From positions 779 through 64,778 of the forward strand of contig CAZBMD010000005.1 in assembly GCA_964493325.1 (NCBI GenBank): 64,000 nucleotides of DNA. Direction: 5' to 3'. Below, piece by piece: positions 521 to 31,687 of the stretch. The DNA comes from an uncultured Pseudomonadota bacterium. Its GTDB lineage: Bacteria > Babelota > Babeliae > Babelales > RVW-14. How positions within the stretch are numbered: the stretch's first letter is position 1; each line of letters starts with the position of its first letter. The notes beneath the pieces are model-generated. The model was not told the DNA's origin. It did not search any database and saw only the letters and a program-made list of their open reading frames with translations. The position numbers were made by a program, and so were the translations under genes.

Positions 521-697
521 CTCTTCCCCTTTTACAGTTTCTATCTTAATTTTATCTGTTTATTATCATCATACAGCCAATTGCTCATGGCCGTATTTTC
601 CTACCAAGACTAAAATTGTTGATGCCTGATGGTCAATATTTTCTCAAATTGACTACGCGTTATGTTGATCTTAAGACACTTCTTCGCATAATCTTTT

Positions 698-2758: not shown

Positions 2759-2783
2759 AACCCTTTTTTCTCCTGCACAATTC

Positions 2784-6960: not shown

Positions 6961-9026
6961 GAGTCATATCTCACTTTTCCAAACAGCTCAAGCGTCGCTC
7001 CACTGAGCACTCGAATATCAAGATCTGTATTGAGTCGCAAACTCTCTGCATTATGCTTTGCTTCACTACTCATCGTTACTTTGTTATCAAGAAATAATTT
7101 ACCCGTTGATAAATGCAAGCCAGTACGAGTTGTATGAAGCGTACAACCATTCAGATACAAAATTGATGAGAGATCTTCCATGACTAAAAGATCTTGTCGA
7201 GCTCGCGCAGGCGCATAACTAAAAGTAATACCTTGATCTAAAAACAACATTGATTGTGATGCAATGGTACTCGAAAGACGTGTTGTATAATTAAATTTAT
7301 TAGTACCGGTGATAAAAACATCTTCATCAAAAAGAATTGAGCCCAAAGAAAAAGTGTAATCTCGAGAAAGCATTAATGAGCTGTTGCGCAGCGTGATAGC
7401 AGAAGAATTTGTAAGACACCGAAGATTAAAATCACTAATATTTTCAAGCATCACATCTTCAAAAATTAGCCTTGAACCCGGACGAACAACTAATGTGCTA
7501 CCAGGGTCAAACGCCATGCGTTTACCTTGGCCGTTGATTTTGCATGATCCTTGGAAGTGCAACGTTGTTGTTACCACAATGTCACTGTTACACAAAAGCG
7601 TTGTATCTTTAAAAATCAGTGGTGCAAATTTTAATCGATTAGTTTCTTCAACGCGCAACGTAAGCGTTGGGATAAAATAAGCAAAGTAATTATTATTTCT
7701 CGACCAGCGCGACCCTTTAATATCTCCCGCAACATCAAAAGCGCGAAGCGGTGTAAGCTTTTTGGTTGTTTTATCGAAAGAAAAAAGTTCAAATTCAGGA
7801 CCAGTGCCGGTAAGTATACTAACCAAAAGATAGGTTCCTGATCGATCCCAGTGAACGGTGTGCACCGATTTTGATTCGGTCACACGAGCACTCTGAACTT
7901 CTTGAATAGTTCCACTAGAGGCATCGTACACGCGAATATTCGTTGTTCCGCCTGCAAGGCCTACCGCAATGTATGACCCTGATGGCGACCAATCAAGCGT
8001 ATTAACAGCAAGACCTATCTCGGCAGACGAGGTGAGCGTAAGAGATCCTCCGCTAAACGAGAAAATTAAAATCTCGGTACCTGCATTTACCGCGGCCGAT
8101 GCTGCAAGTTGATTATTACCTGGGCTAAAAGACATCGATGCAAAAGAACGAACTGGACTTGCAATGAAAGTTACAGGCGAACCAAGTACTCCGCTTGGAG
8201 CTGGATATGTAAGAATTGTTCCAACCGTTGTTGCAGCAACAACATAATTGGCAGGATGCCATACAACGGCGGTAATATCTCCCGTTGCAATGCTTGCCCC
8301 GCTAATAACAGGGATAGTTCCATTCCACGAGCGATGCTCATACACGATAAGTTCATTACCAGCAATAGTACTACTGCCAACAGCAAGATAGCGCAGCGTT
8401 GGATGCCAAGAAAGAGCGTTAATAGCAACAGTAGATGCAACCGAAAGAGTGTTAGTCAGGGTGTTACCATCAAAATAGGTAATGACCAATTCTGGGCCCG
8501 CGTTCACCGCATACCCACTTGCAATATATCTATTGGTCACATCCCAATCAAGCGCGTTCAGTGCACCTGTTTGCACAATACTAGCAGCAAAGTTGTAGGT
8601 CATATCTTTTTCTACAAAATTGAAATCGGTTACTTTTTGAGGCAGTACAATGGCACGGCTATTGCCTTCAATAATCCCACCGGTCATAAACGTAAGATCT
8701 GAATCTAAAATAAGGTCTTGAGCCAGTGTAAGTCGACCCCCATTGAGACGAAAAACCTCAGACACACTTTCAAAATCATTGTACGTACAGGTTGTTGTTC
8801 GGTCTTGAAGCTTGAACCCATCTTCAAATTTGGCAAAACCAAGCATTGTATTATTTGTGTCTGTTGATGGAAAAATCGTAAAAGTCTGACTGGACGGTGT
8901 TGAATTTGAGCCAACAACAACAGCTTGAACTGAGCTTGATACAATAAGCACAACGCTCATAAAAAACAAAGCTTGAACTCTTTGTTTTTTATTGAAAAAA
9001 CGAATTTTTGACCTAAAAAAATTCAT
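6957..9026 (-). CDS. Secreted CTM-family protein (cap + propeller + CTM)
   Basis: 689-aa ORF with a signal-like N-terminus (ALFFMSVVLIVSSSVQA). Blades such as 'WHPTLRYLAVG', 'WSPSGSYIAVG' and 'HWDRSGTYLLVS'. CTM landmarks CKINGQGKR, VRPGS, NLRCLT, YTFSLGS, FSYAP, LNGCTLHTTRTG. Confidence 0.9.
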   Translation of the reverse strand: MNFFRSKIRFFNKKQRVQALFFMSVVLIVSSSVQAVVVGSNSTPSSQTFTIFPSTDTNNTMLGFAKFEDGFKLQDRTTTCTYNDFESVSEVFRLNGGRLTLAQDLILDSDLTFMTGGIIEGNSRAIVLPQKVTDFNFVEKDMTYNFAASIVQTGALNALDWDVTNRYIASGYAVNAGPELVITYFDGNTLTNTLSVASTVAINALSWHPTLRYLAVGSSTIAGNELIVYEHRSWNGTIPVISGASIATGDITAVVWHPANYVVAATTVGTILTYPAPSGVLGSPVTFIASPVRSFASMSFSPGNNQLAASAAVNAGTEILIFSFSGGSLTLTSSAEIGLAVNTLDWSPSGSYIAVGLAGGTTNIRVYDASSGTIQEVQSARVTESKSVHTVHWDRSGTYLLVSILTGTGPEFELFSFDKTTKKLTPLRAFDVAGDIKGSRWSRNNNYFAYFIPTLTLRVEETNRLKFAPLIFKDTTLLCNSDIVVTTTLHFQGSCKINGQGKRMAFDPGSTLVVRPGSRLIFEDVMLENISDFNLRCLTNSSAITLRNSSLMLSRDYTFSLGSILFDEDVFITGTNKFNYTTRLSSTIASQSMLFLDQGITFSYAPARARQDLLVMEDLSSILYLNGCTLHTTRTGLHLSTGKLFLDNKVTMSSEAKHNAESLRLNTDLDIRVLSGATLELFGKVRYDS

Positions 9027-9042
9027 TACCGTCGATCCTTAC

Positions 9043-10533
9043 CTACGTTGCACTAAAAATTTCAATCGAACCGTCCAAATAGTTAGGGCCAGCTTGCAGG
9101 AGCGTTGCTGTTTGCTCAATGCGTAAACGACCCAGACCAAGATACATTGGCTGACAAAGTTTAAGCAACGATGCTGCATTAACCGTTAATGTCGACAAAG
9201 AGTTATACATTTTCCAAGATGATGGAGCTACGTTCTTGTAAATCAGATATCCAGAATTGAGGCTAAGTAAGCCTCCGGGCAATAGTTCACAGGAAAAATC
9301 TTCGCCGGCATCAGATCCAAAAGTTAGCCCCTGCTCTATAACTCTGTAGTTTACAGGGTCTCTGAGCATTTCAACGTAAACATTGGCAAGTCCCTGAACA
9401 ACAAGTTTACCGTTTTTCAGTGCCATACCAGTACTCGTTACATGAAGCGACGCACCACTGCTCATAAAAATAGACGAACTATCATTTACAAAAGCAAGGT
9501 TATCAATCTTCGGGGTTGTAAAGTCAACACTAAACGTCATATTATTAGTCAGATGTAACAGAGAGTTAGCGTTGACGGTACAGGTAGCTGTTGGTTGAAA
9601 AACAAAAGTTTGAGAGCCAATTAGATCGAGTGTTCCAATGACCTCAAACGCTCCAGTACCAAAAGTATATTCACCGCTTTGCACCAGGGCAGCATTCTGA
9701 AATATAATTTTTCCAGCATTATCAAGACAACGCAAATTTGAACCTGCAACATCCTGTAAAATAATATTTTTTAATAATAATGTAGCTCCGCGCTCAACGA
9801 CAATGTTCCCATAATTGCCTAAGTTCAGAATATTGCCATTCCCAATAATTGTGCTATTCCTACCACTAAACGTCCATGTTTGCGCAAGATTGAGAGTCGC
9901 TTTAAGTTCAATATCATTCCCGTTATCAAAATAAATTGAGCCGTTCCATGTCATCTCCTTAGCACCTAAGACAATTTTTCGTCCGTTGCACAATACCGTT
10001 CCATGACAAAGAAGCATTTGACCATCAACAAAACTCAAGTTTTCTTCTAGATAAAGGGTGCCCCCATTAAGCTCAATACTTTTTGCAAGGCTGCGCGTAA
10101 TCGCACACGTTAAGCTTGCATTTTCATCAAAGAATATGATGTTATTGCTCAATAAAATCTCGCCTTCTAAGCGATTGTTGCCATTTTTAATGTTAATTTC
10201 TTGAGCAATTTGTTTACCGGTTCCTTTAAATCGCTTATCACCATCAAGATGAATAATATTATCTGTTCCTGGTAAATAAGCTCCTACCAAAAACATTCTA
10301 TTTCCTGAGTCCTCAAAAATACCTTTATTAAATTGTATTTTTTGACCCGAAATTTCCGCGCCACTCTCCTTAGTCACATGCCCTTTGCACTCTGGAATTG
10401 TTTTTTCAAGAACTAAGCCAGCACCTTCAGCAACTCGAAATCCAGCAGTGGTACTTCTAAAATTTATTAATGCAAAGCTAGATGCATATGACATGCAAAG
10501 AGCAAGTAAAAAAATAATATTTTTTCTATTCAT
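9043..10533 (-). CDS. Secreted CTM-family protein, propeller-less subtype
   Basis: I prefer ATG 10533 (MNRKNIIFLLALCMSYASSFA), which sits 13 nt after the upstream stop and is preceded by AAAAAGGGGGGAG. 'LNGGTLYLEENL' is followed directly by a CTM-like module (IIGNGNIL, NLRCLDNAGKI, EYTFGTGA, ...LNSGYLIYKN). Confidence 0.85.
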   Translation of the reverse strand: MNRKNIIFLLALCMSYASSFALINFRSTTAGFRVAEGAGLVLEKTIPECKGHVTKESGAEISGQKIQFNKGIFEDSGNRMFLVGAYLPGTDNIIHLDGDKRFKGTGKQIAQEINIKNGNNRLEGEILLSNNIIFFDENASLTCAITRSLAKSIELNGGTLYLEENLSFVDGQMLLCHGTVLCNGRKIVLGAKEMTWNGSIYFDNGNDIELKATLNLAQTWTFSGRNSTIIGNGNILNLGNYGNIVVERGATLLLKNIILQDVAGSNLRCLDNAGKIIFQNAALVQSGEYTFGTGAFEVIGTLDLIGSQTFVFQPTATCTVNANSLLHLTNNMTFSVDFTTPKIDNLAFVNDSSSIFMSSGASLHVTSTGMALKNGKLVVQGLANVYVEMLRDPVNYRVIEQGLTFGSDAGEDFSCELLPGGLLSLNSGYLIYKNVAPSSWKMYNSLSTLTVNAASLLKLCQPMYLGLGRLRIEQTATLLQAGPNYLDGSIEIFSAT

Positions 10534-10546
10534 TACTCCCCCCTTT

Positions 10547-13500
10547 TTAAGCAAGATTTTTGTACACTAAATAACCAGAATTAAGCTCAATCCGAGATTC
10601 TGGAAAAATCTCAATCCGCAAATCATTTGTCTCGTCAAGCCCATCTCCAATAATTATTCCCTCAGCAGGATATCCTGCGCCACTAATAAAATTGCACACG
10701 CCTCGCACTTCCAAGTACCCTTTGGTCAATTGCAGGCCTGTTGACGTCGATGCGATCGACGCATTTTTCATAATTAATCTTGTTGTATCATCCGCTAATG
10801 ATAAAAGGGTACGAGACTCAGACGCAGGCTCATACGAGAAAGTAAAGTCATCTCGTAGGTATAAACTTGCTCGAGACTTAACCCTGCTTTCAGCATCTGA
10901 TTGATACAAAAACTGATAATCTCGACCGTTCATATCCATCTGATTAATGACATCAAAACTTCCAAGAGAGAAAGTGAAATTACTATCTTGAGACCAAGTA
11001 ACATTATCAAAAATCAACTTGCCAGCATTATCAATGCAATACAAACTTCCATCCAAAAGTCCATCAATTACTACATTTTTAAATCGAACACGAGACCCTC
11101 TCCCTATTGCTATTTGACCTGTAGGTCCAAAAATAAGTGAATTTCCATCCCCATTAATGGTGCAATCGCCGCTAAATGTCCACTTAGACGTAAGTTGAAG
11201 ATTTGATCGTAAAACTATAGACGCTTTGTTTGAATCCCAATCAAGAGTACTAGTACTGTATAAACTAAGACCACCAACACTGACAGATAAATTAGATAAG
11301 TTTACCTTGCCTTGGCCATTGAAAAATTGATTATCCGAAAACTGAAGAGGTTTTGTTAGCGTTACAGAGCTCTTATTCAATGATATATAACTAGACATAG
11401 CCCCGACAACATCCCATGAAAATGATGCTGATTGATTAGAACAAACAATTGGAGCAGCGATACTCCCTGGTCCACTAATAATATTTCCAGACCCCGCGAT
11501 AAGGGTTGAAAGGGGGAGCGCCCCTGTCTGTGCGGTAATTTTTCCGTTTCCATCAAGCAATGTTGTAAAAAAATTATAACGCTTTCCTGTAATTAAAAAT
11601 TCAATACCAGCAGCTGAAAAAGCACAATCTTTATATGATAAAACTGCACCAGCGCCCACTACCAAGTCCCATGGACCAGAGAACTCTACCGTTAAATTTT
11701 TAAAAGAAGCATTTTTATCAATCACAATATGAAGAGCTGGATCAATCGTTACTCTTGTTAAGCGTGTGATTGATTGAATTCCAGTCTCTGTTGTACAAGC
11801 ATAAATAAAATGCCCTTTAGGCAAATACAAACTTGCTCCAGGATCTAATTTCACACTACAATCTTCTGAACTAATACCATTACCCAAAGATAACCCATAA
11901 TGTGAATGCGTAGAGTTTATATCAAACGTTAATTTCTTATTTACCTTGACCATACCTCTCAGGATCTTCATGCCCGACGAAGTAACCGAAAAAGTCCCAG
12001 AGTCCACCTCTAACACAGATGTTGTATCTTCAAAAAATAGCGGCTCTCTTCCATTATTACGTCCAAGAACCACACCCATATCGTCATGAATTCCCCAAAT
12101 AGAACTCATTCCGATTGAACTTGTTAATGTAGATTCATAATAAAACGTACCAGTTCCGGTAAAATCATTTCTGTTAATAAAATTAAGACTACCATGAGAA
12201 AAAGAGAATGAATCATCTTGATCCCATCTTACTCCATCAAGGATCAAGGAAGCAGAATCGTCTATGCACTCAATGTTATTTCCATCAATGCCTGTGATAA
12301 AAATATTTCTAAACCTTAGCGAACTACCACTACCAATCTTTATCTTTCCTGTAGGCAGAAGAGCAAACCTCTTGCCACCTCCATCAATAATGCAATTTCC
12401 AGAAAACACCCACTCAGAAGACAGTGCAATATCAGCATTTAAATTAATTGATGATCCCTGAGCATTCCAAGATATTGAACTTGTCCAGTTCAAATCTTTT
12501 GAACCCAAAGTACAATCATACGTACCCATGATCACACTACCAGCTCCAACAAAGCCGGTATGCTGCCCAAAAACAATATTTTTTTCCAACGCAACACTTC
12601 CGCCTCCAAGCGTAATATCTGAAAAAAAGCTGCCATCAAGACCGACAGACAAGTGGGACGTTGAATCCAATAATATGGTTGGACCGGAAATATCTCCTGA
12701 TCCTAGGAAGAAATTATACGGCCCTTGAACAAGCGTCGCTGCTGGGTAATTACCCTTGACTAGGTAAAACTCACAACCTCCATAAAGAAGTGTCGCGTCT
12801 GGCGAGTATCGCAAGCCTGTGACCCTAAAATCGGCAAAAGGATAGCTAAAAAAGCAGTTGTCGTAATACAACTGTTTTCCTGGGATAAAAACAATGCTAC
12901 TGGTTAAATTGGAATACACCGAAACGTTATCACAATGAACATCTTGCTTCGAGTAAAAAACACTATTACCACTTCTGATAAATTTTACCTCTACATCGTC
13001 AGTTAAAAAATTTTCAGCGGCAACAACATCATAAATAAAATGTCCTTCATTTAGTTTTAAGACAGCACTCGGAAATAATTTGAATGTGGCATCATCTTCG
13101 GCTATCCCATTACCCAAAATAAAACCATTGGATGTTGATGTTGACTCAATATCTAAAATTACTTCTCGATCACACAAAAAGGTTCCTCTTGTAAACTGCA
13201 TGCCAGAAGCTGTAATAATAAGCGTGCAATGTTCCAAGCGTAAAACGGACGATGCATCCTCGCAAAATAACGGTTCTCGATCAAAAATTCCATTTTTTCG
13301 ACCAAAAGAAACTTGTGCTAAATCTGAAAAAAACCATGTCGAATCTGATGCCACGGTGCTCGTTAAGCCAGAAGAATAGGTAAATCTATATCGGCCTGTA
13401 ACATCAACTTCATTATGAATACGAATACTTCCTTGTGAAAAGGTATAATCATCATCTTGTACCCAACGAACCTCATCCATGATTAAAGATCCTGAGTCGT

Positions 13501-14086
13501 TTAGACAGCGAATGTTGTACCCTGATATTCCATCAACTTCAATATTTTTTAAACGCAACGATGCATTGTTATCGATTAAAATGCAACCGTCTCCGTCAAG
13601 AACAAGGCAATGTCCTCGACCATTAATCACACAGTCACCTCGAATACGCAAAGTCCCCGAGAGATTAATATCTGAATTTATAAAAAGCTTTGTATTGTCA
13701 AGAATTGTATCACTGGATGATGGTAACCCTGTAATGCTTTCACACAAATCAAGAATATGATCATTGCCTCGAATAAAACCAGGAGTAACGAGCTCCGATG
13801 GATTGTTTAGTGACAGATCAGTATCCAAAAACAACTGGCCTCCGTGTAAATTCACGTTACCCGAAACAGGAAACGCCGACCCAAAGGTACACGTTGTTGT
13901 TGCATCTTGAAGCCCAAAACCACTTTTGAACCAACCAAATGCAAGCATAGCATTGTCAGAATCAGCTGATGGAAAAACAAAATAAGGCTCAATCGATAAA
14001 ATCGACTCTGAGCCTTTTTGAACAGCAAAAATTTGTAGGGGAAATAAACAGATGAAAAGGATTAGAAAGAACTTCTTACTCACCAC
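10547..14086 (-). CDS. Giant secreted CTM-family protein with cap plus three tandem CTM-like modules
   Basis: 1179-aa ORF with a signal-like N-terminus (FFLILFICLFPLQIFA). The cap is 'FPSADSDNAMLAFGWFKSGFGLQDATTTCTF..PVSGNVNLHGGQLFL'. Three modules each contain C-x-I-[ND]-G-x-G, N-I-[RE]-C / L-Y-C, [YF]-[TS]-FS-x-GS and a G-[HY]-[FL]-[IV]-Y end. Confidence 0.9.
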   Translation of the reverse strand: MVSKKFFLILFICLFPLQIFAVQKGSESILSIEPYFVFPSADSDNAMLAFGWFKSGFGLQDATTTCTFGSAFPVSGNVNLHGGQLFLDTDLSLNNPSELVTPGFIRGNDHILDLCESITGLPSSSDTILDNTKLFINSDINLSGTLRIRGDCVINGRGHCLVLDGDGCILIDNNASLRLKNIEVDGISGYNIRCLNDSGSLIMDEVRWVQDDDYTFSQGSIRIHNEVDVTGRYRFTYSSGLTSTVASDSTWFFSDLAQVSFGRKNGIFDREPLFCEDASSVLRLEHCTLIITASGMQFTRGTFLCDREVILDIESTSTSNGFILGNGIAEDDATFKLFPSAVLKLNEGHFIYDVVAAENFLTDDVEVKFIRSGNSVFYSKQDVHCDNVSVYSNLTSSIVFIPGKQLYYDNCFFSYPFADFRVTGLRYSPDATLLYGGCEFYLVKGNYPAATLVQGPYNFFLGSGDISGPTILLDSTSHLSVGLDGSFFSDITLGGGSVALEKNIVFGQHTGFVGAGSVIMGTYDCTLGSKDLNWTSSISWNAQGSSINLNADIALSSEWVFSGNCIIDGGGKRFALLPTGKIKIGSGSSLRFRNIFITGIDGNNIECIDDSASLILDGVRWDQDDSFSFSHGSLNFINRNDFTGTGTFYYESTLTSSIGMSSIWGIHDDMGVVLGRNNGREPLFFEDTTSVLEVDSGTFSVTSSGMKILRGMVKVNKKLTFDINSTHSHYGLSLGNGISSEDCSVKLDPGASLYLPKGHFIYACTTETGIQSITRLTRVTIDPALHIVIDKNASFKNLTVEFSGPWDLVVGAGAVLSYKDCAFSAAGIEFLITGKRYNFFTTLLDGNGKITAQTGALPLSTLIAGSGNIISGPGSIAAPIVCSNQSASFSWDVVGAMSSYISLNKSSVTLTKPLQFSDNQFFNGQGKVNLSNLSVSVGGLSLYSTSTLDWDSNKASIVLRSNLQLTSKWTFSGDCTINGDGNSLIFGPTGQIAIGRGSRVRFKNVVIDGLLDGSLYCIDNAGKLIFDNVTWSQDSNFTFSLGSFDVINQMDMNGRDYQFLYQSDAESRVKSRASLYLRDDFTFSYEPASESRTLLSLADDTTRLIMKNASIASTSTGLQLTKGYLEVRGVCNFISGAGYPAEGIIIGDGLDETNDLRIEIFPESRIELNSGYLVYKNLA

Positions 14087-14348
14087 TCAACTCCCTTTTT
14101 TATGTCTTGCATTATCGTGACACCACTTTCAAATGCGTGATGAGGTGCCGTATAGACACTACACACCTGTAGTTGGTGTTACTCTCCTTAATTTCAATCG
14201 TATATCGTTTCAAAAAACAATCAAGCTTTAAAATTTGATCATTAATTACACCAAGTTTGCATTGTCTTTTTCAACAGATGTGAGAAAATCAACGAATCTT
14301 TTTCTGTTGATCACCTTTACACAACATCTTTCGATTGTTCAATGAATC

Positions 14349-15614
14349 ATGAATTTTAAAAAAATTACTCTGTTGAGTACACTTCTTATAGGATGCACAC
14401 TGATAGTTGTCTGTTATATTCTTTTTACTCAAGGCAATCTTAAATTTGTTAATTTTGAAACAGCAACAAAAAATCAATCAGAAGGACCTCGTGTTCTTTT
14501 TGTTCATGTTACTCAAGGATCTGGCGGAGCAGAAACGCACAGCATAGCTCTTTATAAAGAAGCTCTGTCACACGGAATGAATGCAACTATGCTTGTCCAA
14601 AAAAATTCTTTTATCCAACAAGAACTCAAGCAGTTTCAAATTCCACACTACGAAACATCAGCTGCATCATTCATAAAAATGAGCAAACTTTACAAATATA
14701 TTCTCACAAAAAATATTCAAGCAATTCATAAAAAACAACCAATTGATATCGTACAATGCAATACCGAACGAGAAACATATGCTGCAAAAAAGGCTCAGCT
14801 TTATTACCCAATAAAAGTCATCTGGGTTCGGCACAATGAAGAGCTTCCTCGCTGCATGCAAGTCCTTAAAAATCTCAATGGCATCATTGCAGTCAGCCCA
14901 CAAATTGAACAGTTACTTACTCACGCAAACAAACAGTACAAACTCGATATTGATGAGATAAGAACTATCTACCCATTTTTTAATCAAGAACGCCTTCTTT
15001 CATACAATCCTCAAGAATCCAGAAAAATTTTTTTTCAAAAATATTTTAATCTTTCGGTTGATAACAACACTGTCTTACTGTGCATGGTTGCCAATCTATA
15101 CTCGAACATTGATCACAAAAATCATCCGCTTCTTCTCAAGGCCACAGCAAAGCTCATTCATGAAAAACAAAAAAATATCCAGGTTCTGTTGGTTGGTGAT
15201 GGCCGCGCTCGCTCAGAATTAGAAAAACAGTGCTCGGACTTAAACATCTCAAAATATGTTCATTTTCTTGGATTTACCGCGCATGTTCCCGCAATCCTCT
15301 ATCACTCAGATATTAAAGTTCTTTCGTCACGCAGCGAAGGACAAGCAATCGCCCTTACCGAAGCTGCATTCATGCAAAAACCGCTCATTGCAGCAACTGG
15401 AACAAGCGCTGTAAATATAGTCATTGATGGTAAAACAGGATACCTTTTTAGAAATAATAATGCTGATGATTTGGCAGAAAAAATTGAAATCCTAGTTGAT
15501 AATCCTCTACTTCGTATACAAATGGGAAAAGCAGCTCAAGATCTTGCTTTTAAAGAATTTGCAAATGCCAGCAAATTAAAAAAGCTGAAAAAATTCTATC
15601 AAAGACTGAAATGA
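14349..15614 (+). CDS. Glycosyltransferase, GT4 / group-1 family, with an N-terminal TM segment
   Basis: 421-aa ORF. The C-terminal half has the GT-B group-1 pattern (..LLVGDGRARSELE..HFLGF..SSRSEGQAIALTEAAFMQKPLIAT....DGKTGYLF). Confidence 0.75.
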   Translation: MNFKKITLLSTLLIGCTLIVVCYILFTQGNLKFVNFETATKNQSEGPRVLFVHVTQGSGGAETHSIALYKEALSHGMNATMLVQKNSFIQQELKQFQIPHYETSAASFIKMSKLYKYILTKNIQAIHKKQPIDIVQCNTERETYAAKKAQLYYPIKVIWVRHNEELPRCMQVLKNLNGIIAVSPQIEQLLTHANKQYKLDIDEIRTIYPFFNQERLLSYNPQESRKIFFQKYFNLSVDNNTVLLCMVANLYSNIDHKNHPLLLKATAKLIHEKQKNIQVLLVGDGRARSELEKQCSDLNISKYVHFLGFTAHVPAILYHSDIKVLSSRSEGQAIALTEAAFMQKPLIAATGTSAVNIVIDGKTGYLFRNNNADDLAEKIEILVDNPLLRIQMGKAAQDLAFKEFANASKLKKLKKFYQRLK

Positions 15615-15640
15615 CTCTTGTAAGAGTCATTTCAGTCTTT
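15601..15640. terminator. Bidirectional hairpin between convergent genes
   Basis: Perfect 19-bp inverted repeat, aaagactgaaatgactctt / aagagtcatttcagtcttt. It overlaps the GT4 stop codon and lies 17 nt from the stop of the minus-strand fibre gene. Confidence 0.65.
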
Positions 15641-15656
15641 GTTGTATTAGAAGAGA

Positions 15657-17804
15657 TTAAATGTTTTCACTCATTTCTAACAACGCCTGCTGCATAATAG
15701 GACTATCTTTCAAAGAATCACACACTGCTTCGATTTCTTCATTTTGCAGAGGAGATTTTAGCGTCATCAGATAGTGAAGAATAGTAGTAAGAGTTTGTTT
15801 ACACTCAACCAACTGGTCATAATAAGCCTTAATTTTTTCGTCACCTCTTAGATACTCATTAAGTAACAGTATCGATATTGCATCATACCGGACCGAGATA
15901 GGATTCCCATCAGCATCATACGCAACAATCTCTGGATACACTTGCGCAACTTCTTCAGCAATCAAACCATATTGAAGAGTTTGTTCAGGATCATTATTAT
16001 ACGCAAAAACGACAGGACGAAGTTTTGTCACATAACGGCTGCGTTCAGATATGTCTCTGATATCTTTTTTATAATTACGTGAGGATAATACTGTACCAAG
16101 CTTGCCATCGGCTGAAATAACAACCGGCAAAGAAGAAAGCACATCAGTTGTTGATTGCCCAGAAATTCCTGCAATAAAACAGCCGGTATGGGTAGCCGTC
16201 GTACCAAGCCGTATAATTGTATCTTCTTGACCAACACCAGCAGCGCCTATATAAATATTATCACTTCCTGCTATTAGGTTTTCGCCTACATAAGCTCCAA
16301 GCCCAATATTAGACGAACCAGATTCAAGATTTAAGAAACTCTCAAACCCAATAGCGGTGTTACCCGAGTCAACAGAATTTTGTAAGGACCATGCTCCAAT
16401 AGCTGTATTGCCATTGCCAGTACTATTATTGAAAAGGCTCTCGCCTCCACAAGCTACGTTGTCTTGACCAGAAGTATTGTAAGTCATGCTCGACTGACCA
16501 ACTGCTGTATTATTACTTCCTTCATCATTACTTACAAGGCACCCAGCACCAACAGCAGTATTCAAGGCACCCGTGTAATCATTAACCAATGTCATTGTCC
16601 CCAAGCCAGTATTGCCCAAAGCACTACCTGTATCCAATGAAAAATTACCAGAACTTGATCCTACAAAGGTATTGTACATCCCATAATCACTAATAAATGA
16701 AGATCCATTAATTTGCAAAGAACCATTGTTTGCAGCTGTTGTACTTGGAAGACCAAGACCCCCACCAACAGATACCACCGTTTCAGGAGCACATGGATTA
16801 ACTTGATCTGTAAATAAAGTTCCACTGCAAAGATAAATATCACCCAAAACAGAAAGATCTTCCGCAAAGACTGGTGTGCCAACGCCAAGTTTTCCCGTTG
16901 CGGTGTCAATAACTACAGCTGTTCCATCAACAATTGCAGTATTTGCAATGGTAGGAATAAAACACCCTGTATGGGTCATAGCTGTACCCAAGCGAATAAC
17001 GCCATATTCTTGGCCACAACCTGCGTTACCAATATAAATATTATTGTTTCCTTCTACAAAATTTCCTCCAGCATAGTCTCCAAGCGCAATATTAGATGAG
17101 CCGCCAACCATGTTGATTAAACTTTCATAACCAACCGCTGTGTTAAATGATTCTGTTGAATTTTGAAGAGATCGAGTTCCAACTGCAGTATTTCCATCAC
17201 CATAGAAAGAATTTAAAAGAGCTTCTCCCCCTAAAGCAACGTTACTTTGACCGGAAATATTATTGGTCAAACTGCTCTGCCCTACTGATGTATTGTTGTT
17301 TCCATCAGTGTTATTTGCAAGGCAAGCCGCACCAACAGCTGTATTTAATGCTCCAAAAGCATTATTGGAAAGTGCAAAGGCACCAACACCTGTATTTCCA
17401 AAGGCGTCAACAGGGTCAAGAGTAAAGTTTCCAGCATTGGCTCCAGCAAAAGTATTATCCGATCCGTAGTTATGAAGGAATCTAGCCCCATCAATTTGCA
17501 AAGACCCATTGTTTGCTGTTGTTGCCGTAGGAAGATTAATGCTCCCTCCAAATGATGTCGTTGTCGTTGGACAGCATGGATCAATCTCATTGGTAAAAAA
17601 TGTCCCGCGTACGGTTAGATCTTCTCTAATAAGCAAATCATGAATACATTTAGGAAATTGCAGATTCACACATACCGAAACATCATTGTTTGTAGCCTCA
17701 CATGGAAGACCGCAATGACCTCCATACAAAGAAAATGATGTTGTAACTAATAATGAGATCGCAGCAAGCTTTTTTATAAGAACCTGCACAGAATGATAAG
17801 CCAT
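15657..17804 (-). CDS. Tail-fibre-like protein with a C-terminal Peptidase_S74 intramolecular-chaperone domain and an internally duplicated fibre unit
   Basis: I prefer ATG 17804, preceded by AAAAAAGGAGTATT. The C-terminus 'GKLGTVL-SSRNYKKDIRDI..LRPVVFAYNND..YGLIAEEVAQVYPEIVAYD..ISVRYDAISILLLNE' matches the S74 S-x-R-x-x-K signature. Two fibre units of ~250-260 aa carry NTAVG/NTAIG repeats. Confidence 0.85.
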   Translation of the reverse strand: MAYHSVQVLIKKLAAISLLVTTSFSLYGGHCGLPCEATNNDVSVCVNLQFPKCIHDLLIREDLTVRGTFFTNEIDPCCPTTTTSFGGSINLPTATTANNGSLQIDGARFLHNYGSDNTFAGANAGNFTLDPVDAFGNTGVGAFALSNNAFGALNTAVGAACLANNTDGNNNTSVGQSSLTNNISGQSNVALGGEALLNSFYGDGNTAVGTRSLQNSTESFNTAVGYESLINMVGGSSNIALGDYAGGNFVEGNNNIYIGNAGCGQEYGVIRLGTAMTHTGCFIPTIANTAIVDGTAVVIDTATGKLGVGTPVFAEDLSVLGDIYLCSGTLFTDQVNPCAPETVVSVGGGLGLPSTTAANNGSLQINGSSFISDYGMYNTFVGSSSGNFSLDTGSALGNTGLGTMTLVNDYTGALNTAVGAGCLVSNDEGSNNTAVGQSSMTYNTSGQDNVACGGESLFNNSTGNGNTAIGAWSLQNSVDSGNTAIGFESFLNLESGSSNIGLGAYVGENLIAGSDNIYIGAAGVGQEDTIIRLGTTATHTGCFIAGISGQSTTDVLSSLPVVISADGKLGTVLSSRNYKKDIRDISERSRYVTKLRPVVFAYNNDPEQTLQYGLIAEEVAQVYPEIVAYDADGNPISVRYDAISILLLNEYLRGDEKIKAYYDQLVECKQTLTTILHYLMTLKSPLQNEEIEAVCDSLKDSPIMQQALLEMSENI

Positions 17805-17844
17805 AATACTCCTTTTTTGGCTACAACTAAAAATAGAACATTTT

Positions 17845-18837
17845 TTAAGCACCATTCAATAATGCAAAAAGCTCATTAATTTGTTTCGCTTGAGTTATAA
17901 ACTTATCGTCATACAGGGAAATTACATTGCGCAGAGATTTAAGCTGTTCTTGAAGCTCTGCCAACTGCTCCTTTTGCTGCAAATATTCATTAAGAATAAG
18001 AACAGGTATTTCATCATATCTTACAGAAAGAGGATTTCCCTCTTCATCATATACGGCAAGTTCAGGAAAATTTTGCGCAACTTCCTCGGCAATCAAACCA
18101 TATTGAATTATTTTTTTAGGATCATTTTTGTAGACAAAAGCAACAGGCCGCAGCTTTGTTAAGTTATTGCTTCGAGTATAAATATCCTGAATATCATCCT
18201 TGTAACGACGAGAAGATAGGATAGTACCAAGCTTACCATCTGAAGAAATAACAACAGCCAAACTGGAAAGAATATCCGTTGTAGCTTTCCCGGCAATACC
18301 TGCAATAAAACATCCCGTATGGGTGATAGTTGAACCAAACCGCATAACATTATCCTCAGCTCCAGCGCCATTATTTCCAAGGTAAATATTATTACTGCCC
18401 AACAATAATGAAGATCCAGCATTATAACCAATTGCCGTATTTTCAGTACCGGTAATTAAGTTATTCAAACTATTTGCTCCAATACCAACGTTCGTTGTTA
18501 GGTTGTCAACATCTTCCAATACCAGACTGCCTACTCCCAAGTGACCTTCACTATTGATAACAACCGGAGAACCGCTTATCACGTTGGCAGCTGTTGAAGG
18601 AAGAGTAACCAATCCCAATATAGTGGCAGAACCCGTCATACGAATATCGGCATTATGATCAGCATTTACTTTGATAAATGAATCGTTAAGCACTCTGAGA
18701 TTTTCGTCCTGTGTCACGATATAAAATTGATCGCTCACATGCTCTATTGCGTAAAGATATCCATTTGGAATAAAGAAAATTATAAAAATCTTGAAAGAAA
18801 AAAGAATACTCCTGCTCAATCGGTTTATGTTCGTCAC
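17845..18837 (-). CDS. Tail-fibre-like protein with a C-terminal Peptidase_S74 chaperone domain (short paralog)
   Basis: 330-aa ORF with 'GKLGTIL-SSRRYKDDIQDI..LRPVAFVYKND..YGLIAEEVAQNFPELAVYD..LSVRYDEIPVLILNE'. The N-terminus is hydrophobic. Confidence 0.85.
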   Translation of the reverse strand: MTNINRLSRSILFSFKIFIIFFIPNGYLYAIEHVSDQFYIVTQDENLRVLNDSFIKVNADHNADIRMTGSATILGLVTLPSTAANVISGSPVVINSEGHLGVGSLVLEDVDNLTTNVGIGANSLNNLITGTENTAIGYNAGSSLLLGSNNIYLGNNGAGAEDNVMRFGSTITHTGCFIAGIAGKATTDILSSLAVVISSDGKLGTILSSRRYKDDIQDIYTRSNNLTKLRPVAFVYKNDPKKIIQYGLIAEEVAQNFPELAVYDEEGNPLSVRYDEIPVLILNEYLQQKEQLAELQEQLKSLRNVISLYDDKFITQAKQINELFALLNGA

Positions 18838-18995
18838 GCCAATACTCCTTTAATAATATCGATTAATTTAGGTATTAAACTCGATATTTTCGAGCTATTG
18901 CGTTTGATGATATCTTATGCAGGATCTTAATTGTCAATAAAACATAGAAAATTCAGCAATAGATTTTTATTTTGATAAAGGGAACATATGGCTGC

Positions 18996-19340
18996 TTAAT
19001 TTTTCTTGGCTCGCTTCGCAGCTTGTACAGCCAGAAGCACCCATTCAGCAAGATTATCTGGATTCTCAAGTATATCGGCAGGAACCTCCCAATAACTCAT
19101 GACAATTGTTTTCTTATTTTTTCCCTCATAAGAAAAAGGTTTTGAACCGTACGACTCATATTTGAAGCGGGTGGCATCATCAACTTTAAAATACAAAATT
19201 TCATCTGCTATTAAAGCAAAAAAAATTCCATCTTTATAAAAGCCAACGCCACCAAACATTTTGCGAGATTTAATATTACCAAGCGGTGTCAGCAGATCGA
19301 TAACATATTCAGCAAAGCCATTTTTAGACATAAGCGCCAC
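18996..19340 (-). CDS. TfoX/Sxy N-terminal-domain protein
   Basis: 114 aa. 'LTPLGNIKSRKMFGGVGFYKDGIFFALIADEILYFKVDD' is the TfoX_N pattern. Confidence 0.7.
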   Translation of the reverse strand: MALMSKNGFAEYVIDLLTPLGNIKSRKMFGGVGFYKDGIFFALIADEILYFKVDDATRFKYESYGSKPFSYEGKNKKTIVMSYWEVPADILENPDNLAEWVLLAVQAAKRAKKN

Positions 19341-19344
19341 CCAA

Positions 19345-20475
19345 TCAGCTTAATCTACCAACAACTTCTTCAATAGTTTTTACAACCTGTTTTGCTGGAA
19401 TGTCTTTAATCCAGTCGCTACGCTTTGCGCACATGACAAGCTCCCCATTATTTAAGTCCCATGGTACCCACTCAGGATTTTTTTGCCGCATGAGGGCGAC
19501 AACGGGAACTTTAAGCGCACTTGCCAGATGAATAACCGACGTCTCAACCGAGATAACAAGATCGCATAATGAAATAATTGCAGGCAACTGGAAAAAATGG
19601 TATTGAGCAGAAAAAAAGACAATACTGTTAATGGAATGGCTTGCAAAAAACTTTTGAACACGCTTTTGCTCTGCAGGATCAACATTGACAATAAAATTTA
19701 TATCTGCCCAATTATCGTGCTGCTTAATCAGCGTAAGAACCTCAAAAAGATTCTCAAGCGGCCAACATCGTTTATCGTTTTTTGCAAAGGCATTAATAAA
19801 AAACACTTTGCCAAATCGCTGTGATCGCTTGTCAAAACCCCACATCAAAAAGCGTAGCTTGGCAAACGAAATCCATTGTCGAGGAATAGCCACAAACGGA
19901 GCACGAGCACTACCTTCTGCGACTTCAAGACCAAAAAGTTCCAAAAACCAAGCAGCATAACAATTTGAAATATGACCCTGATTTGCAAATTTTTTCACAT
20001 CCAGAGCTGCATCCAATTTTTTGTATGCTAATTTTGTAAAAAATTGCAGCATCCTGGTTGGTTGACGTACACCCACAACAAATCCGTTGGGGCTAAGGTT
20101 CCGCGCAAGCTTGGCATACTTTTCAGACCGCAAGGTACAAAGCGAAACAACAATAGGATAGTTTTCTGCTTGCGCATCTTGAATGGATTTTTTGAACAAT
20201 GAAACGGAATAAGTTTGGTCGTAAATTTTATGGAAAAAAGAACACGCTCGTACCCAATCGTAAAGAACATACCGCTTGAGATTATCCCACTTCCAAAAGC
20301 AACGTGTTCGGCGTACCTCGTCAACCCAAAGATGAATTTTTATGTGGGGATATTGCCGAGCAAAAGCGGCAAAATAAGTTTGCATGTACGTAAAATCACC
20401 AAGCGCCAGATGCGTAACAAACAATATTTTATCTGCTTTTTGCAAAAGATCATGCGGAACAAGTTGATTAGACAT
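19345..20475 (-). CDS. Glycosyltransferase family 9 (heptosyltransferase-like)
   Basis: 376 aa with 'ILFVTHLALGDFTYMQ' near the N-terminus and 'LISLCDLVISVETSVIHLASALKVPVVAL' near the C-terminus. Both are typical of GT9. Confidence 0.7.
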   Translation of the reverse strand: MSNQLVPHDLLQKADKILFVTHLALGDFTYMQTYFAAFARQYPHIKIHLWVDEVRRTRCFWKWDNLKRYVLYDWVRACSFFHKIYDQTYSVSLFKKSIQDAQAENYPIVVSLCTLRSEKYAKLARNLSPNGFVVGVRQPTRMLQFFTKLAYKKLDAALDVKKFANQGHISNCYAAWFLELFGLEVAEGSARAPFVAIPRQWISFAKLRFLMWGFDKRSQRFGKVFFINAFAKNDKRCWPLENLFEVLTLIKQHDNWADINFIVNVDPAEQKRVQKFFASHSINSIVFFSAQYHFFQLPAIISLCDLVISVETSVIHLASALKVPVVALMRQKNPEWVPWDLNNGELVMCAKRSDWIKDIPAKQVVKTIEEVVGRLS

Positions 20476-26245: not shown

Positions 26246-28285
26246 TTAGCTTGCGTTAGCGTACACAAGTTCTCCAGACTGCAGTTGAATTTTACCGCCT
26301 GGTAAAATTTCTACAGCCAGATCATTTGCAGCAGTTCCATTACCAAACGCTATTGCTTCAGAAGCACTTAAAGCACCGGTGTTGTAGAACTGATTCTTGT
26401 GATCAACTACCAGCGTTCCATTGGTCAAACGCATACCTGTTACTGTTGATTGAACTGTACAGCCGTTAAGAAAAAATACTGATGATCGATCAGCCATACC
26501 AAGCAAGTCTCGATTTGCAGAAACTGGCGCATAGCTGAACGTCGTTCCAATATCCATCATCAAGCGTGAACATGGCAGAATTTTTGAACTAGCGTTGGTT
26601 GGACGATAACCAAAAACATTGGTTCCAACCATACGAACATCCATCTCAAATAAAATTCTTCCAGAGGTAAATGAATAATCATTGGATAAACAAAGAACTG
26701 CGTTCTTAAGTTTAAGAGATGCACTTGTTCCCTGGCATCGAATGTTATTCTGCTTGAGTCCTTCAACAAAGATATCCTGCATTGTTAAACGACCACCAGG
26801 CCGAACAGTAATAACAGAATTGCCCATCATAATCTTGTTGCCAAAGCCCTCTATTAACGTTGTTCCCGAAAAAGTCATATTGCTTGTTAACGTCTGCATG
26901 TCTGGCAACTCAATAATCGTACCTTCACCAAATACTACAGAAGCCCCAGCTCCAAGCGTGATAGAACCATCTGTAAAGTTTTTAAGTACGACGTCTGTTA
27001 GTATCAAATTCTTCCCAGCTGATATATTAAAGTTTCCAGCCTGACGCGCAAAGTCAAAAGCATGACCATTACCATCAAGAACTGTGTGCCCTGTTACCGA
27101 AACAGTTGAGTCTACCGATACCACAAAATTCTTTTGAAGAGTGTATGTTGGCCCAGGAATTATCAGGTTGCCAGTGCCAGCAAACAAAAGGATAATTGCT
27201 TGGCTGTTGTTGGTGGTCAATCTTAGTAAAGTATTACTATTATTTTTACAACAGGACAAAAGCGCATTGCTGTTATTTGTTGTCAGTTGTAACATTGCGT
27301 TACTATCTGTTCTTTCTTTGCGGTCTAAAACAATAATTGAGTTGCTCAAATTATTGGTCAAATATAAGAGAGCGTTACTATTATTATTACAGCATGCGAG
27401 CAGCGCATTACTCAGATTTTTTGTCAAATAAAGCAGAGCGTTACTATCTGTTCTCTCTTTGCTATCTAATACAATAATCGAGTTACTCAAATTCTTGGTC
27501 AAATATAAGAGAGCGTTACTATTATTATTGCAGCATGCAAGCAGAGCATTACTCAGATTTTTTGTCAAATAAAGCAGAGCGTTACTATCTGCTCTCTCCT
27601 TGCTATTGAGCACAAGAATTGCATTACTATTATTATTGCAGCAGGCAAGAAGCGCATTGCTCAGATTTTTTGTCAGATATAAAAGAGCATTACTATCTGT
27701 TCTCTCTTTGCGATCTAATACAATAATCGAGTTACTCAAATTCTTAGTCAAATATAAGAGAGCGTTACTTGTAGCCGCAGCAAGAGATGCCCCGCCAGGA
27801 CCGTTAGCAATAATGGCGTTGCTATTGTTAGTTGTCAGTCTTAAAAGCGCATTGCTCAGATTTTTGCAGCAAACCAAAATTGCATTACTATTATTTCTTG
27901 TAAGTCTTAGGAGAGCATTACTATTATTCCTTGTAAGCCTTAAAAGAGCATTACTGTTATTTCTGATATTACGAAGAGCGTTACTATTTGAATAGACTAG
28001 ATTTGTATGAGCTCCTCCGCCTGCACGGCTAACTACAATGCCGTCCGTGTAGGTGCCGATCCAGCTTGTTGCTGCATTATTTCCAAACTCTTTAACAATT
28101 GACTCTTCGCTCCACCCTGTAATTGCTGATGCCGTGTTTACTCGTAACAGAGAATTTGTCGACTTTATCGCAATCATAGAGCTGCGATTATGAAAATTTA
28201 CGGTCGCAGAAAGTTGCTGGGAAAACCCCAAGCAGAGAACCGCAGCCATCAATAAAGATTGCTTACTAACCTGAGTATTCTTCAT
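26246..28285 (-). CDS. Secreted protein: 11-residue (hendecad) repeat array fused to a CTM module
   Basis: ATG 28285 (MKNTQVSKQSLLMAAVLCLGFSQQLSA) is preceded by GAGGGGATA. About 24 copies of S-N-A-L-L-x-L-T-x-N-x. The C-terminal module reads 'VRPGGRLTMQDIFVEGLKQNNIRCQG..NDYSFTSGRILF..FSYAPVSANRDLL..LNGCTVQSTVTG..SGELVYANAS'. Confidence 0.88.
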   Translation of the reverse strand: MKNTQVSKQSLLMAAVLCLGFSQQLSATVNFHNRSSMIAIKSTNSLLRVNTASAITGWSEESIVKEFGNNAATSWIGTYTDGIVVSRAGGGAHTNLVYSNSNALRNIRNNSNALLRLTRNNSNALLRLTRNNSNAILVCCKNLSNALLRLTTNNSNAIIANGPGGASLAAATSNALLYLTKNLSNSIIVLDRKERTDSNALLYLTKNLSNALLACCNNNSNAILVLNSKERADSNALLYLTKNLSNALLACCNNNSNALLYLTKNLSNSIIVLDSKERTDSNALLYLTKNLSNALLACCNNNSNALLYLTNNLSNSIIVLDRKERTDSNAMLQLTTNNSNALLSCCKNNSNTLLRLTTNNSQAIILLFAGTGNLIIPGPTYTLQKNFVVSVDSTVSVTGHTVLDGNGHAFDFARQAGNFNISAGKNLILTDVVLKNFTDGSITLGAGASVVFGEGTIIELPDMQTLTSNMTFSGTTLIEGFGNKIMMGNSVITVRPGGRLTMQDIFVEGLKQNNIRCQGTSASLKLKNAVLCLSNDYSFTSGRILFEMDVRMVGTNVFGYRPTNASSKILPCSRLMMDIGTTFSYAPVSANRDLLGMADRSSVFFLNGCTVQSTVTGMRLTNGTLVVDHKNQFYNTGALSASEAIAFGNGTAANDLAVEILPGGKIQLQSGELVYANAS
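27188..27991 (-). repeat. In-frame coding tandem repeat: 33-nt subunits organised into 141-nt higher-order units
   Basis: The units SNALLYLTKNL / SNALLACCNNN / SNSIIVLDRKERTD recur. Two complete 141-nt (47-aa) higher-order copies at 27305..27586 are highly similar by eye at the DNA level. Confidence 0.85.
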
Positions 28286-28584
28286 TATCCCCTCTTCTCT
28301 CCACAATTTATTATGTGATTACCTTAAACATTCTTCCTTTTCTTCTCTTAATCTAAGATAACATTTACACAGAATTCACCTTTTTACCATTGGTCTGCTA
28401 AAGAACTGAGACCAATGCTGGCAAAAAATTGGACCTCCGTTCAAGTATTAAAAATTTTTAGCTTTTTGCAAGATGAAAGAATTGAATTGAAATATTTCAA
28501 AAATCTTGTCAATTCAAAACATAGTCTCATACATTTTGAATAGGCGACGCCCTCCATTTTCAAAGTTTTTATAAAGGATATCTA

Positions 28585-30021: not shown

Positions 30022-30041
30022 AGCTTAAGGAGAGCGATTCT

Positions 30042-31685: not shown

Positions 31686-31687
31686 TC

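Follow-up and report, generated by a model that had tools for sequence, protein, structure and literature searches.

Here we describe two neighbouring genes, A and B, in the window (the whole 64-kb stretch of DNA analysed here, from assembly GCA_964493325.1), which probably encode exported, trimeric fibre proteins derived from phage tail fibres, paralogues carried on the chromosome with a proposed adhesin or recognition role towards a protist host. Both genes are chromosomal, co-directional and on the (-) strand. Because the RuvB protein of the window is 72-77% identical to its best named relatives (candidate division TM6, Candidatus Babeliales and Candidatus Dependentiae), we take the host to be a Candidatus Dependentiae/Babeliales bacterium, whose phylum is made up of obligate parasites of protists (PMC6561590, PMC4776705). 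The genes and their parts are as follows.

17845..18837, (-) strand: gene B, 330 aa, predicted secreted short fibre ending in an S74 domain; GTG start
18748..18837, (-) strand: gene B signal-peptide-like leader, residues 1-30 (MTNINRLSRSILFSFKIFIIFFIPNGYLYA), basic n-region and hydrophobic core with mean Kyte-Doolittle value up to 2.6 over 12 residues
18529..18747, (-) strand: gene B N-terminal domain, residues 31-103, lineage-restricted, ending in the connector motif VVINSEGHLGVG
18226..18528, (-) strand: gene B fibre unit (shortened), residues 104-204, with 2-3 NTAxG repeats, NNIYLGN, MRFGSTITHTGCFIAGI and VVISSDGKLG
17848..18216, (-) strand: gene B S74 domain, residues 208-330, predicted cleavage L207|S208, dyad S208/K213, Ser codon 18214..18216
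15657..17804, (-) strand: gene A, 715 aa, predicted secreted two-unit fibre ending in an S74 domain; preferred start ATG 17804
17721..17804, (-) strand: gene A signal-peptide-like leader, residues 1-28 (MAYHSVQVLIKKLAAISLLVTTSFSLYG), KK followed by a hydrophobic core
17625..17720, (-) strand: gene A Cys-rich N-terminal linker, residues 29-60, short, with 4 Cys and low model confidence (AlphaFold2, AF2; predicted local distance difference test, pLDDT, <50)
16884..17624, (-) strand: gene A fibre unit 1, residues 61-307, with a cap, 7-8 17-residue repeats, IRLGTAMTHTGCFI and VVIDTATGKLG
16863..16883, (-) strand: gene A inter-unit connector VGTPVFA, residues 308-314, aligning with the connector found after the N-terminal domain of gene B and of the relative P0004
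16095..16862, (-) strand: gene A fibre unit 2, residues 315-570, with a cap, repeats, IRLGTTATHTGCFI and VVISADGKLG
15660..16085, (-) strand: gene A S74 domain and C-terminal helices, residues 574-715, predicted cleavage L573|S574, dyad S574/K579, Ser codon 16083..16085

The GTG start of gene B is preceded by an AAGGAG ribosome-binding site (RBS). For gene A the maximal open reading frame (ORF) is 15657..17855 (732 aa); we adopted the 715-aa version because AAAGGAG lies 7 nt upstream of the ATG at 17804 and independent gene callers on three metagenome contigs (JGI, Logan) agree on it, giving 330 aa for B and 715 aa for A.

Chaperone domains, repeat shafts and leaders

Both proteins are members of the S74/ICA-domain family by profile, dyad and predicted fold. 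In Pfam, PF13884 (Peptidase_S74, 'chaperone of endosialidase') matches gene A at 40.2 bits (E 4.2e-10) and gene B at 41.1 bits (E 2.2e-10), about twice the gathering cut-off of 22 bits, and profile positions 1-57 of 58 are covered. This HMMER-type search, a check that an earlier note on this DNA had itself suggested, bears out the S74 domains which that note had read on both proteins. The profile starts at the leading Ser of SSRNYK in gene A and of SSRRYK in gene B, and the two Ser codons match the cleavage sites that the note had placed after GKLGTVL (at about 16085) and GKLGTIL (at about 18216). The columns of the S-x4-K dyad are invariant, S208/K213 across a 43-sequence alignment for gene B and S574/K579 across a 61-sequence alignment for gene A. 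AF2 monomer models built from homologue alignments give the C-terminal domain a pLDDT of about 88-96 (residues 220-330 in gene B). Searched with Foldseek against the PDB, the S74 domain of gene B finds as its best match the MyRF ICA domain 7dc3 (prob 1.00, E 4e-4), then 3gw6 and 3gud, and that of gene A finds 7dc3 (likewise prob 1.00), 3gud and 3gw6; 3gw6 is the endoNF chaperone and 3gud the phi29 gp12 chaperone (both at prob 0.8-1.0). The family profile also reaches the phage S16 gp37 long-tail-fibre protein 6f45 (E 2e-4). A direct PDB sequence search with gene A gave nothing meaningful (only LytE, E 0.17), and NCBIfam held no family for genes A, B or five neighbours. Going by the family, trimerization-dependent autocleavage would release the S74 domain from both proteins.

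The shaft in front of this domain is built from a 17-residue repeat with the consensus NTAxGxxALxxNxxGxx, for which AF2 predicts one short strand per repeat. Gene A contains 13 NTA[VI]G matches, spaced 17, 16 or 34 residues apart inside each of its two units, and gene B contains two, 17 residues apart; what the earlier note had listed as NTA[VI]G fibre repeats is thus a true 17-residue periodicity. Model confidence is fair along parts of the shaft, with a pLDDT of 73-90 and strands at 17-residue spacing over residues 110-170 of gene B, and 72-91 across residues 390-490 in unit 2 of gene A. The two fibre units that the note had seen in the longer gene (16875..17624 and 16086..16862) hold up as well: they are 55% identical over 256 aa (E 1e-91; about 55-57% overall), and each contains IRLGTxxTHTGCFI. 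The shortened unit of gene B is 52% identical to the end of gene A unit 2 together with its S74 domain. Against PHROG, unit 1 matches phrog_6002 (E 3.8e-33) and unit 2 matches phrog_4636, a tail spike (E 2e-30); overall, both the repeat part and the chaperone part have matches among the PHROG families of tail spikes and virion proteins (E 1e-27 to 1e-33).

Neither protein has a virion-attachment N-terminus; each begins instead with a hydrophobic leader, so that the N-terminus is not that of a virion fibre. We scored a leader wherever the best 10-residue Kyte-Doolittle window close to the N-terminus reached >=1.8 and had K or R before it. This crude rule gave a leader to 88% of the 113 Met-starting closest homologues (of 120 listed) versus 12% of 33 homologues on IMG/VR viral contigs, which instead start with typical fibre-adaptor sequences; both percentages are approximate, a few of the viral ORF reconstructions being incomplete.

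The locus is conserved on three other contigs. Comparison with the orthologues on L001 (a 91-kb contig of JGI sample 3300055001) and L002 shows 54 synonymous and 15 nonsynonymous differences for gene A, and 20 and 17 for gene B (its ratio taken against L001), giving ratios of nonsynonymous to synonymous rates (dN/dS) of 0.08 and 0.24. Because of these ratios and the leaders, we read A and B as cellular genes maintained under purifying selection, not as prophage debris.

Taken together, these features suggest the following pathway. The precursors of A and B would be exported by Sec via the N-terminal leader, after which the S74 domain would gather three chains and template the folding of the beta-rich shaft of 17-residue repeats, as members of the family do. 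S74 C-terminal domains are described as trimerizing, templating the shaft and then cleaving themselves (Schulz et al. 2010, as cited in PMC10769870). Here the Ser-Lys dyad would cut L573|S574 in A and L207|S208 in B, freeing the chaperone. Mature A would comprise about residues 29-573, two tandem units and some 545 residues per chain; mature B, about residues 31-207, would consist of the lineage-specific N-terminal domain and a short shaft, some 177 residues per chain. The fibre would then reach the cell surface or the medium, perhaps, and this is speculative, via type II secretion; every TM6 genome analysed encodes components of this system, two copies of gspD included (PMC4776705). There it might serve in adhesion to, or recognition of, the protist host, as the mosaic adhesive trimer (MAT) fibres of Bdellovibrio and the alternative, non-S74 tip found among relatives (below) would suggest. 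A and B may attach differently or co-assemble, since A lacks the N-terminal domain of B.

Modules, junctions and relatives

The proteins can be parsed into modules that end in the same way. The motif VVIxxxGxLG terminates every module and is followed either by T-x-L-S-S-x-x-x-K, which is the S74 cleavage site, or by VGTPxF..DLSV, the connector to the next module. The inter-unit junction of gene A (GKLGVGTPVFAEDLSV) and the sequence after the N-terminal domain of gene B (GHLGVGSLVLEDV) are the same element. It recurs in P0004, the closest relative outside the species (543 aa; metagenome-assembled genome, MAG, GCA_964429765.1), which runs from an N-terminal domain through GQLGVGTPTFTSDLSV to one full fibre unit and S74; the neighbours of P0004 include WD40 genes and paralogues of the family of an 1179-aa ORF (described below), resembling the window. 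Internal connectors with no S74 domain also occur in the relatives P0007 and P0060.

The earlier note had explained gene A as a fusion of two fibre genes in which the first chaperone was lost. We found no specific support for this: the junction holds no S74 remnant and is an ordinary connector of the family, and the two units diverged long ago. Pairwise identities among unit 1, unit 2 and the P0004 unit are all 54-57%, the three being about equidistant, so the duplication is as old as the split between these genomes. A recent internal duplication was rejected, as the identity between the units (57%) is about that to the unit of another genome (54-57%). Modular shuffling accounts for the data as well as fusion with loss of a chaperone does.

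Another relative, P0003 (972 aa; NCBI/ENA, 305-kb contig), is a single ORF with three complete fibre-plus-S74 units (PF13884 total E 2e-35); it would be a 'polyprotein' that processes itself, with three individual fibres as the predicted products. Because it holds three complete S74 domains in one ORF, the fusion scenario is still conceivable.

The N-terminal domain of gene B is rare. When residues 31-110 were searched exhaustively with phmmer against 1.84 billion representatives, only 9 clusters came back; the domain of P0004 is 60% identical to that of gene B. In three clusters (P0004, P0267 and P0269) the domain precedes a fibre and S74, and in four (P0265, P0266, P0268 and P0271) the domain and connector lead into a non-S74 C-terminal region of about 135-190 aa. 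The tip of P0265 resembles BclA_C at E 2.6e-8, below the Pfam cut-off, and also has a weak C1q match. The BclA_C-type fold commonly serves receptor binding. This tiny, lineage-restricted group, defined by the gene B N-terminal domain and carrying alternative tips, is new, though the novelty is modest.

On a Logan contig (L091, ERR11523672; 206..1768) two tandem genes with near-identical leaders both start with the gene-B-type N-terminal domain; the first, P0265, ends in the BclA_C-like tip, and in the second the domain leads to an NTAxG fibre unit.

The wider family, by contrast with what the earlier note had implied in treating the arrangement as unusual, is very common. A word-indexed search found at least 7,203 relatives at E <=0.001 among the 8,000 candidates scored, nearly all with PF13884; 88% of the 113 Met-starting closest homologues carry a leader by the crude rule above, and phage-free tandem S74 arrays recur. 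Large contigs, the longest of 1.37 Mb, carry many of the S74 relatives, whose source labels read 'tail fiber domain-containing protein' (NCBI; Verrucomicrobia, Udaeobacter) or 'trimeric autotransporter adhesin' or 'hypothetical protein' (JGI). The gene pair is therefore an ordinary representative of a very large, already labelled bacterial class. The best full-length relatives, at 35-48% identity, lie outside recognized phage records and viral contigs. A contig scan of GTDB representatives, which do not include the species itself, returned six distant loci only with gene A (Saprospiraceae, Lentimicrobiaceae, Ferruginibacter, Fibrisoma and Verrucomicrobiae). In the Verrucomicrobiae MAG CAWEAA010000004.1 (L009, 9122..13999), from a phylum unrelated to that of the window, tandem S74 genes of 615 and 1005 aa lie among Kelch, sedolisin-like and sortilin-like genes with no phage genes. 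In GCA_001468865.1 / JGI 3300003324 (L011, 10001..16673; L012, 2377..9049), three consecutive S74 genes (833, 267 and 1048 aa) are flanked by giant ORFs of 2,629 and >4,100 aa that have no Pfam match.

Viral relatives are more distant or partial. Phages that share the whole architecture (Roseobacter phage CRP-1, Methylophilales phage Venkman and Pelagibacter phage HTVC111P) are 26-28% identical over 72-83% of the protein, and relatives on podovirus-sized viral contigs reach 40-45% identity in the C-terminal ~200 residues of the precursor, a stretch that takes in S74. The same repeat-plus-S74 architecture is found on giant virus MAG (GVMAG) contigs in IMG/VR (L021, L054, L074, L076, L079 and L083), whose sources include Marseillevirus and Mimivirus MAGs and which are 32-37% identical to the C-terminal half of gene B; Foldseek against BFVD returns proteins of Edafosvirus, Bodo saltans virus, Tupanvirus and Medusavirus (E 1e-8 to 1e-11). 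We considered and dismissed a specific link to giant viruses, as 32-37% identity is no higher than that of phage or bacterial homologues.

Genomic context and alternative explanations

A Pfam scan of all 45 ORFs >=150 aa in the window detected no capsid, terminase, portal, tail, baseplate, sheath, tube or integrase family, and eight unannotated large ORFs had no PHROG match, in agreement with the earlier note, which had seen no prophage genes in the 64 kb. Phage families are thus absent within 15 kb on one side of the gene pair and 45 kb on the other. Pfam also upholds the flanking genes that the note had named, a GT4-type gene (PF00534/PF13439), TfoX_N and GT9. Housekeeping genes of the window include RuvB, trigger factor, AsnRS, ThyA, DHFR, dCTP deaminase, YebC and YicC, alongside an ABC transporter, an M16 protease, a TolC-like protein and two GT9 genes. 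Eukaryote-like or host-interaction genes are also present: four tandem WD40, three tandem PLA2_B, Tectonin and Methyltransf_FA. GC content is flat across the locus and equals that of the flanks, no att-like direct repeats flank the pair, and the only tRNA genes in the window lie 17 kb away. On these three grounds a mobile island was ruled out.

Genes A and B are probably co-transcribed paralogues. B and A are separated by 40 bp, and B lies 158 bp from the upstream TfoX_N gene; because of the short gap, the spacer and a hairpin beyond gene A, the pair forms an apparent two-gene unit. Two further features bear on its transcription.

18838..18995, (-) strand: intergenic region of 158 bp upstream of gene B, containing a TTGACA hexamer and the RBS
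15600..15641, no strand: perfect hairpin with 20-bp arms and a 2-nt loop, a 100% complementary inverted repeat between gene A and the convergent GT4 gene

The intergenic region is likely the promoter region of the pair, as judged from its position and hexamer, and a scan for consensus promoters upstream of gene B found no convincing full promoter. The hairpin is probably a bidirectional terminator that closes the B-A unit.

Several neighbouring genes deserve mention in their own right. A large family of paralogues, for which Pfam, NCBIfam and PHROG gave no match, occupies 2..14086 and 26246..28306 on the (-) strand. Its 1179-aa ORF (10547..14086) consists of three copies of a ~330-aa module that recurs, at 25-41% identity, in the ORFs 9043..10554 and 26246..28306 and the partial ORF 2..532, and also in both terminal parts of the four WD40 proteins encoded in tandem at 698..9026. 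Proteins with this module begin with a leader-like sequence, and in a related MAG (L010) paralogues of the 1179-aa protein adjoin the S74 fibre gene. At 28585..33316 on the (+) strand are tandem paralogues of 478, 547 and 544 aa with a eukaryote-type PLA2_B lysophospholipase domain (E 1e-24 to 1e-31), which are probable host-directed effectors. Directly upstream of gene B, 18996..19340 on the (-) strand encodes a stand-alone TfoX_N protein (111-114 aa, E 6e-31); this competence-regulator domain is unexpected for a reduced parasite genome. Two large Methyltransf_FA (farnesoic acid O-methyltransferase-like) proteins and one Tectonin protein, all eukaryote-like, are encoded at 48921..50444, 60778..61716 and 61745..63994 on the (-) strand. 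Across 10547..20475, synonymous sites have diverged from L001 to different extents: A, B and the 1179-aa gene have dS values of about 0.09-0.11, as against 0.019 for the GT4 gene and 0.038 for GT9; this unevenness may reflect recombination or a faster turnover of surface-protein genes.

What the earlier note had thought probable, that A and B are domesticated trimeric fibres used as adhesins, is the best reading in its broad outline: the relatedness to phage fibres and the status of A and B as maintained cellular genes stand, and the adhesin part is drawn by analogy with the MAT fibres. Several points weigh against the reading of A and B as exported trimeric adhesins. The adhesin role is a pure analogy, and a glycan-degrading or structural role fits the same data. 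The leaders of A and B were judged by hydrophobicity heuristics alone, no outer-membrane translocation or anchoring element was identified in either protein, and gene A has no gene-B-type N-terminal domain, a possible anchor. The whole-protein AF2 monomer models are mediocre (mean pLDDT 70 and 65) and do not capture the quaternary fold of the shaft. Foldseek against the PDB found nothing significant outside the S74 domain of either protein. Inspection covered 64 kb of a 94-kb contig (a strain 96-98% identical has a JGI contig of at least 1.35 Mb, on which P0001 lies), and a contractile injection system (CIS) or tailocin cluster elsewhere in the genome is possible.

This last point leads to the alternative that A and B are receptor-binding fibres of a tailocin, an extracellular CIS (eCIS) or a prophage encoded outside the window. 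S74-terminated fibres do occur on eCIS particles (bioRxiv 10.1101/2025.05.13.653841), both halves of the two proteins have phage relatives, and a 64-kb inspection leaves room for such a cluster. We nevertheless judge it improbable: fibres of phages and eCIS are put together in the cytoplasm and have N-termini that attach to the virion or baseplate, whereas A and B carry hydrophobic leaders that are shared by most of their closest homologues, unlike those on viral contigs, no sheath, tube, baseplate or phage family lies in the 15 and 45 kb around the pair, and a literature search gave no paper tying contractile injection systems to Dependentiae. The same homology to tail fibres, with no other phage genes nearby, could be taken to mean that A and B are non-functional remnants of a decayed prophage tail module. 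This is very hard to reconcile with intact ORFs that have an RBS, are conserved in at least 3 other samples, show the low dN/dS values given above, have acquired export leaders, match their flanks in GC and have orthologue-like counterparts in a similar neighbourhood of related Dependentiae, and we give it only a slight chance.

Other alternatives accept export and ask what the fibre does. A and B could be S74-processed trimers that are exported yet are not adhesins, for example glycan depolymerases, a structural coat or factors acting in the host vacuole. Among phage proteins that end in S74, many are tailspikes that cleave glycans, endosialidase being one; signal peptides occur on 44% of the coding sequences of Chromulinavorax, a Dependentiae bacterium in cultivation, many of them presumed effectors (PMC6561590); and the neighbours of the pair are probable secreted or effector paralogues (WD40, PLA2_B and the family of the 1179-aa module). 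With no catalytic domain detected by Pfam, NCBIfam or fold search, a shaft that is a simple short-period repeat with no evident enzymatic beta-helix groove, and a BclA_C-like tip (below the Pfam cut-off) on one relative that shares the N-terminal domain, we regard this as unlikely, if the most serious of the competing explanations. The label 'trimeric autotransporter adhesin' that JGI gives many relatives, together with 2yo3, the SadA stalk, as a weak match in Foldseek (prob 0.6, E 0.03), raises the further idea that A and B are type Vc autotransporters. Domain architecture refutes this identity and leaves it next to no probability: there is no YadA-anchor barrel (PF03895) and no Hep_Hag or YadA head at E <=0.01, and a membrane anchor at the C-terminus cannot be squared with the S74 chaperone that occupies this end and is predicted to be removed by cleavage.

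Reading A and B as exported trimeric fibres with a probable role at the protist host also allows a bolder proposal, which we put forward tentatively and consider doubtful as yet: that a small lineage within the Dependentiae built mosaic fibres from phage-derived parts (its own N-terminal domain, the VVIxxxGxLG connector and an S74 shaft or other tip) that recognize the protist host and set the host range. If true, these fibres would parallel both the MAT fibres of Bdellovibrio and the S74 fibres of giant viruses that infect the same hosts. Attachment and uptake of Dependentiae by protists are barely understood, and A, B and the relatives with the N-terminal domain of B offer concrete candidates. 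They would also extend to an obligate parasite of eukaryotes the theme of a phage fibre re-used by a cell, which has been shown experimentally only for Bdellovibrio. Our literature searches found no paper on Dependentiae that describes a tail fibre, S74, fibre or adhesin and so, as far as these searches show, this is the first notice of such fibres in the phylum. More generally, because most of the closest relatives bear leaders and the tandem arrays inspected stand outside any phage context, a Peptidase_S74 or 'tail fiber' match in a bacterial genome should not be taken as evidence of a prophage.

Comparison with known fibre systems

Fibres of eCIS and tailocins have a baseplate-attachment N-terminus and a neighbouring contractile-tail cluster, neither of which was found for A and B within the 64-kb window. 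Phage fibres and tailspikes (K1F endoNF, phi29 gp12, T5 pb1 and S16 gp37; PF13884/MEROPS S74) share with A and B the C-terminal sequence, dyad and predicted fold, and the shafts of the PHROG tail-spike and virion families are homologous to theirs. Unlike phage fibres, A and B have an export leader and no virion-attachment N-terminus or phage context, and their full-length relatives outside phage and viral records are closer (35-48% identical) than phages (26-28%). The ICA domain of MyRF (7dc3) is the same trimerize-then-autocleave module; MyRF itself is a eukaryotic membrane-bound transcription factor, and the module alone is common to both. Giant-virus S74 proteins (Edafosvirus, the 'FhaB-like adhesion protein' of Bodo saltans virus, Tupanvirus and Medusavirus) have a similar predicted architecture and also belong to agents that infect protists, but are no closer to A and B than phage or bacterial homologues, and thus give no sign of direct exchange. 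The class named 'tail fiber domain-containing protein' by the NCBI Prokaryotic Genome Annotation Pipeline (PGAP), with members in Verrucomicrobia and Candidatus Udaeobacter, has the same layout as A and B (E down to 1e-125): leader, NTAxG repeats, NNIYIGN...IRIG...FIAGI...GxLG and S74. It is an annotation label, to which the Dependentiae members add their own N-terminal domain and, in A, a two-unit shaft.

The MAT fibres of Bdellovibrio bacteriovorus, with 13 S74 and 8 non-S74 members (Caulton et al. 2024, PMC10769870), offer the nearest functional parallel. They have a signal peptide and are displayed on the surface, one tip binds prey glycans, and the S74-type members cleave themselves at the Ser of SDxxxK, mutation of the dyad Ser abolishing cleavage (PMC10769870). 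The numbers differ, with two copies in the window versus 21 in Bdellovibrio, as do the hosts, a protist parasite and a predator of bacteria from different phyla. The shaft of A and B is the 17-residue NTAxG repeat, and the proteins measure 715 and 330 aa versus ~1,000 aa for MAT. A MAT fibre has a beta-rich N-terminal domain of ~130 aa after its signal peptide, where A has a 32-residue linker and B a 73-residue domain; the N-terminal relatives of gene B form 9 clusters, none of them MAT-like, and gene A has none, a comparison made with no direct alignment to Bdellovibrio sequences. The S74 subgroup of MAT (for example Bd3182) is otherwise like A and B in being a chromosomal non-phage gene with a leader, a beta-rich trimeric fibre (for A and B, a predicted one) and an S74 domain with S-x4-K. 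The mosaic design is also common to both, MAT tips being S74 or TNF-like, lectin and other domains, and those of Dependentiae S74 or a different tip, BclA_C-like in one case. By this analogy, A and B would work like S74-type MAT fibres, and we do not file them as MAT members, their N-terminal domains being different.

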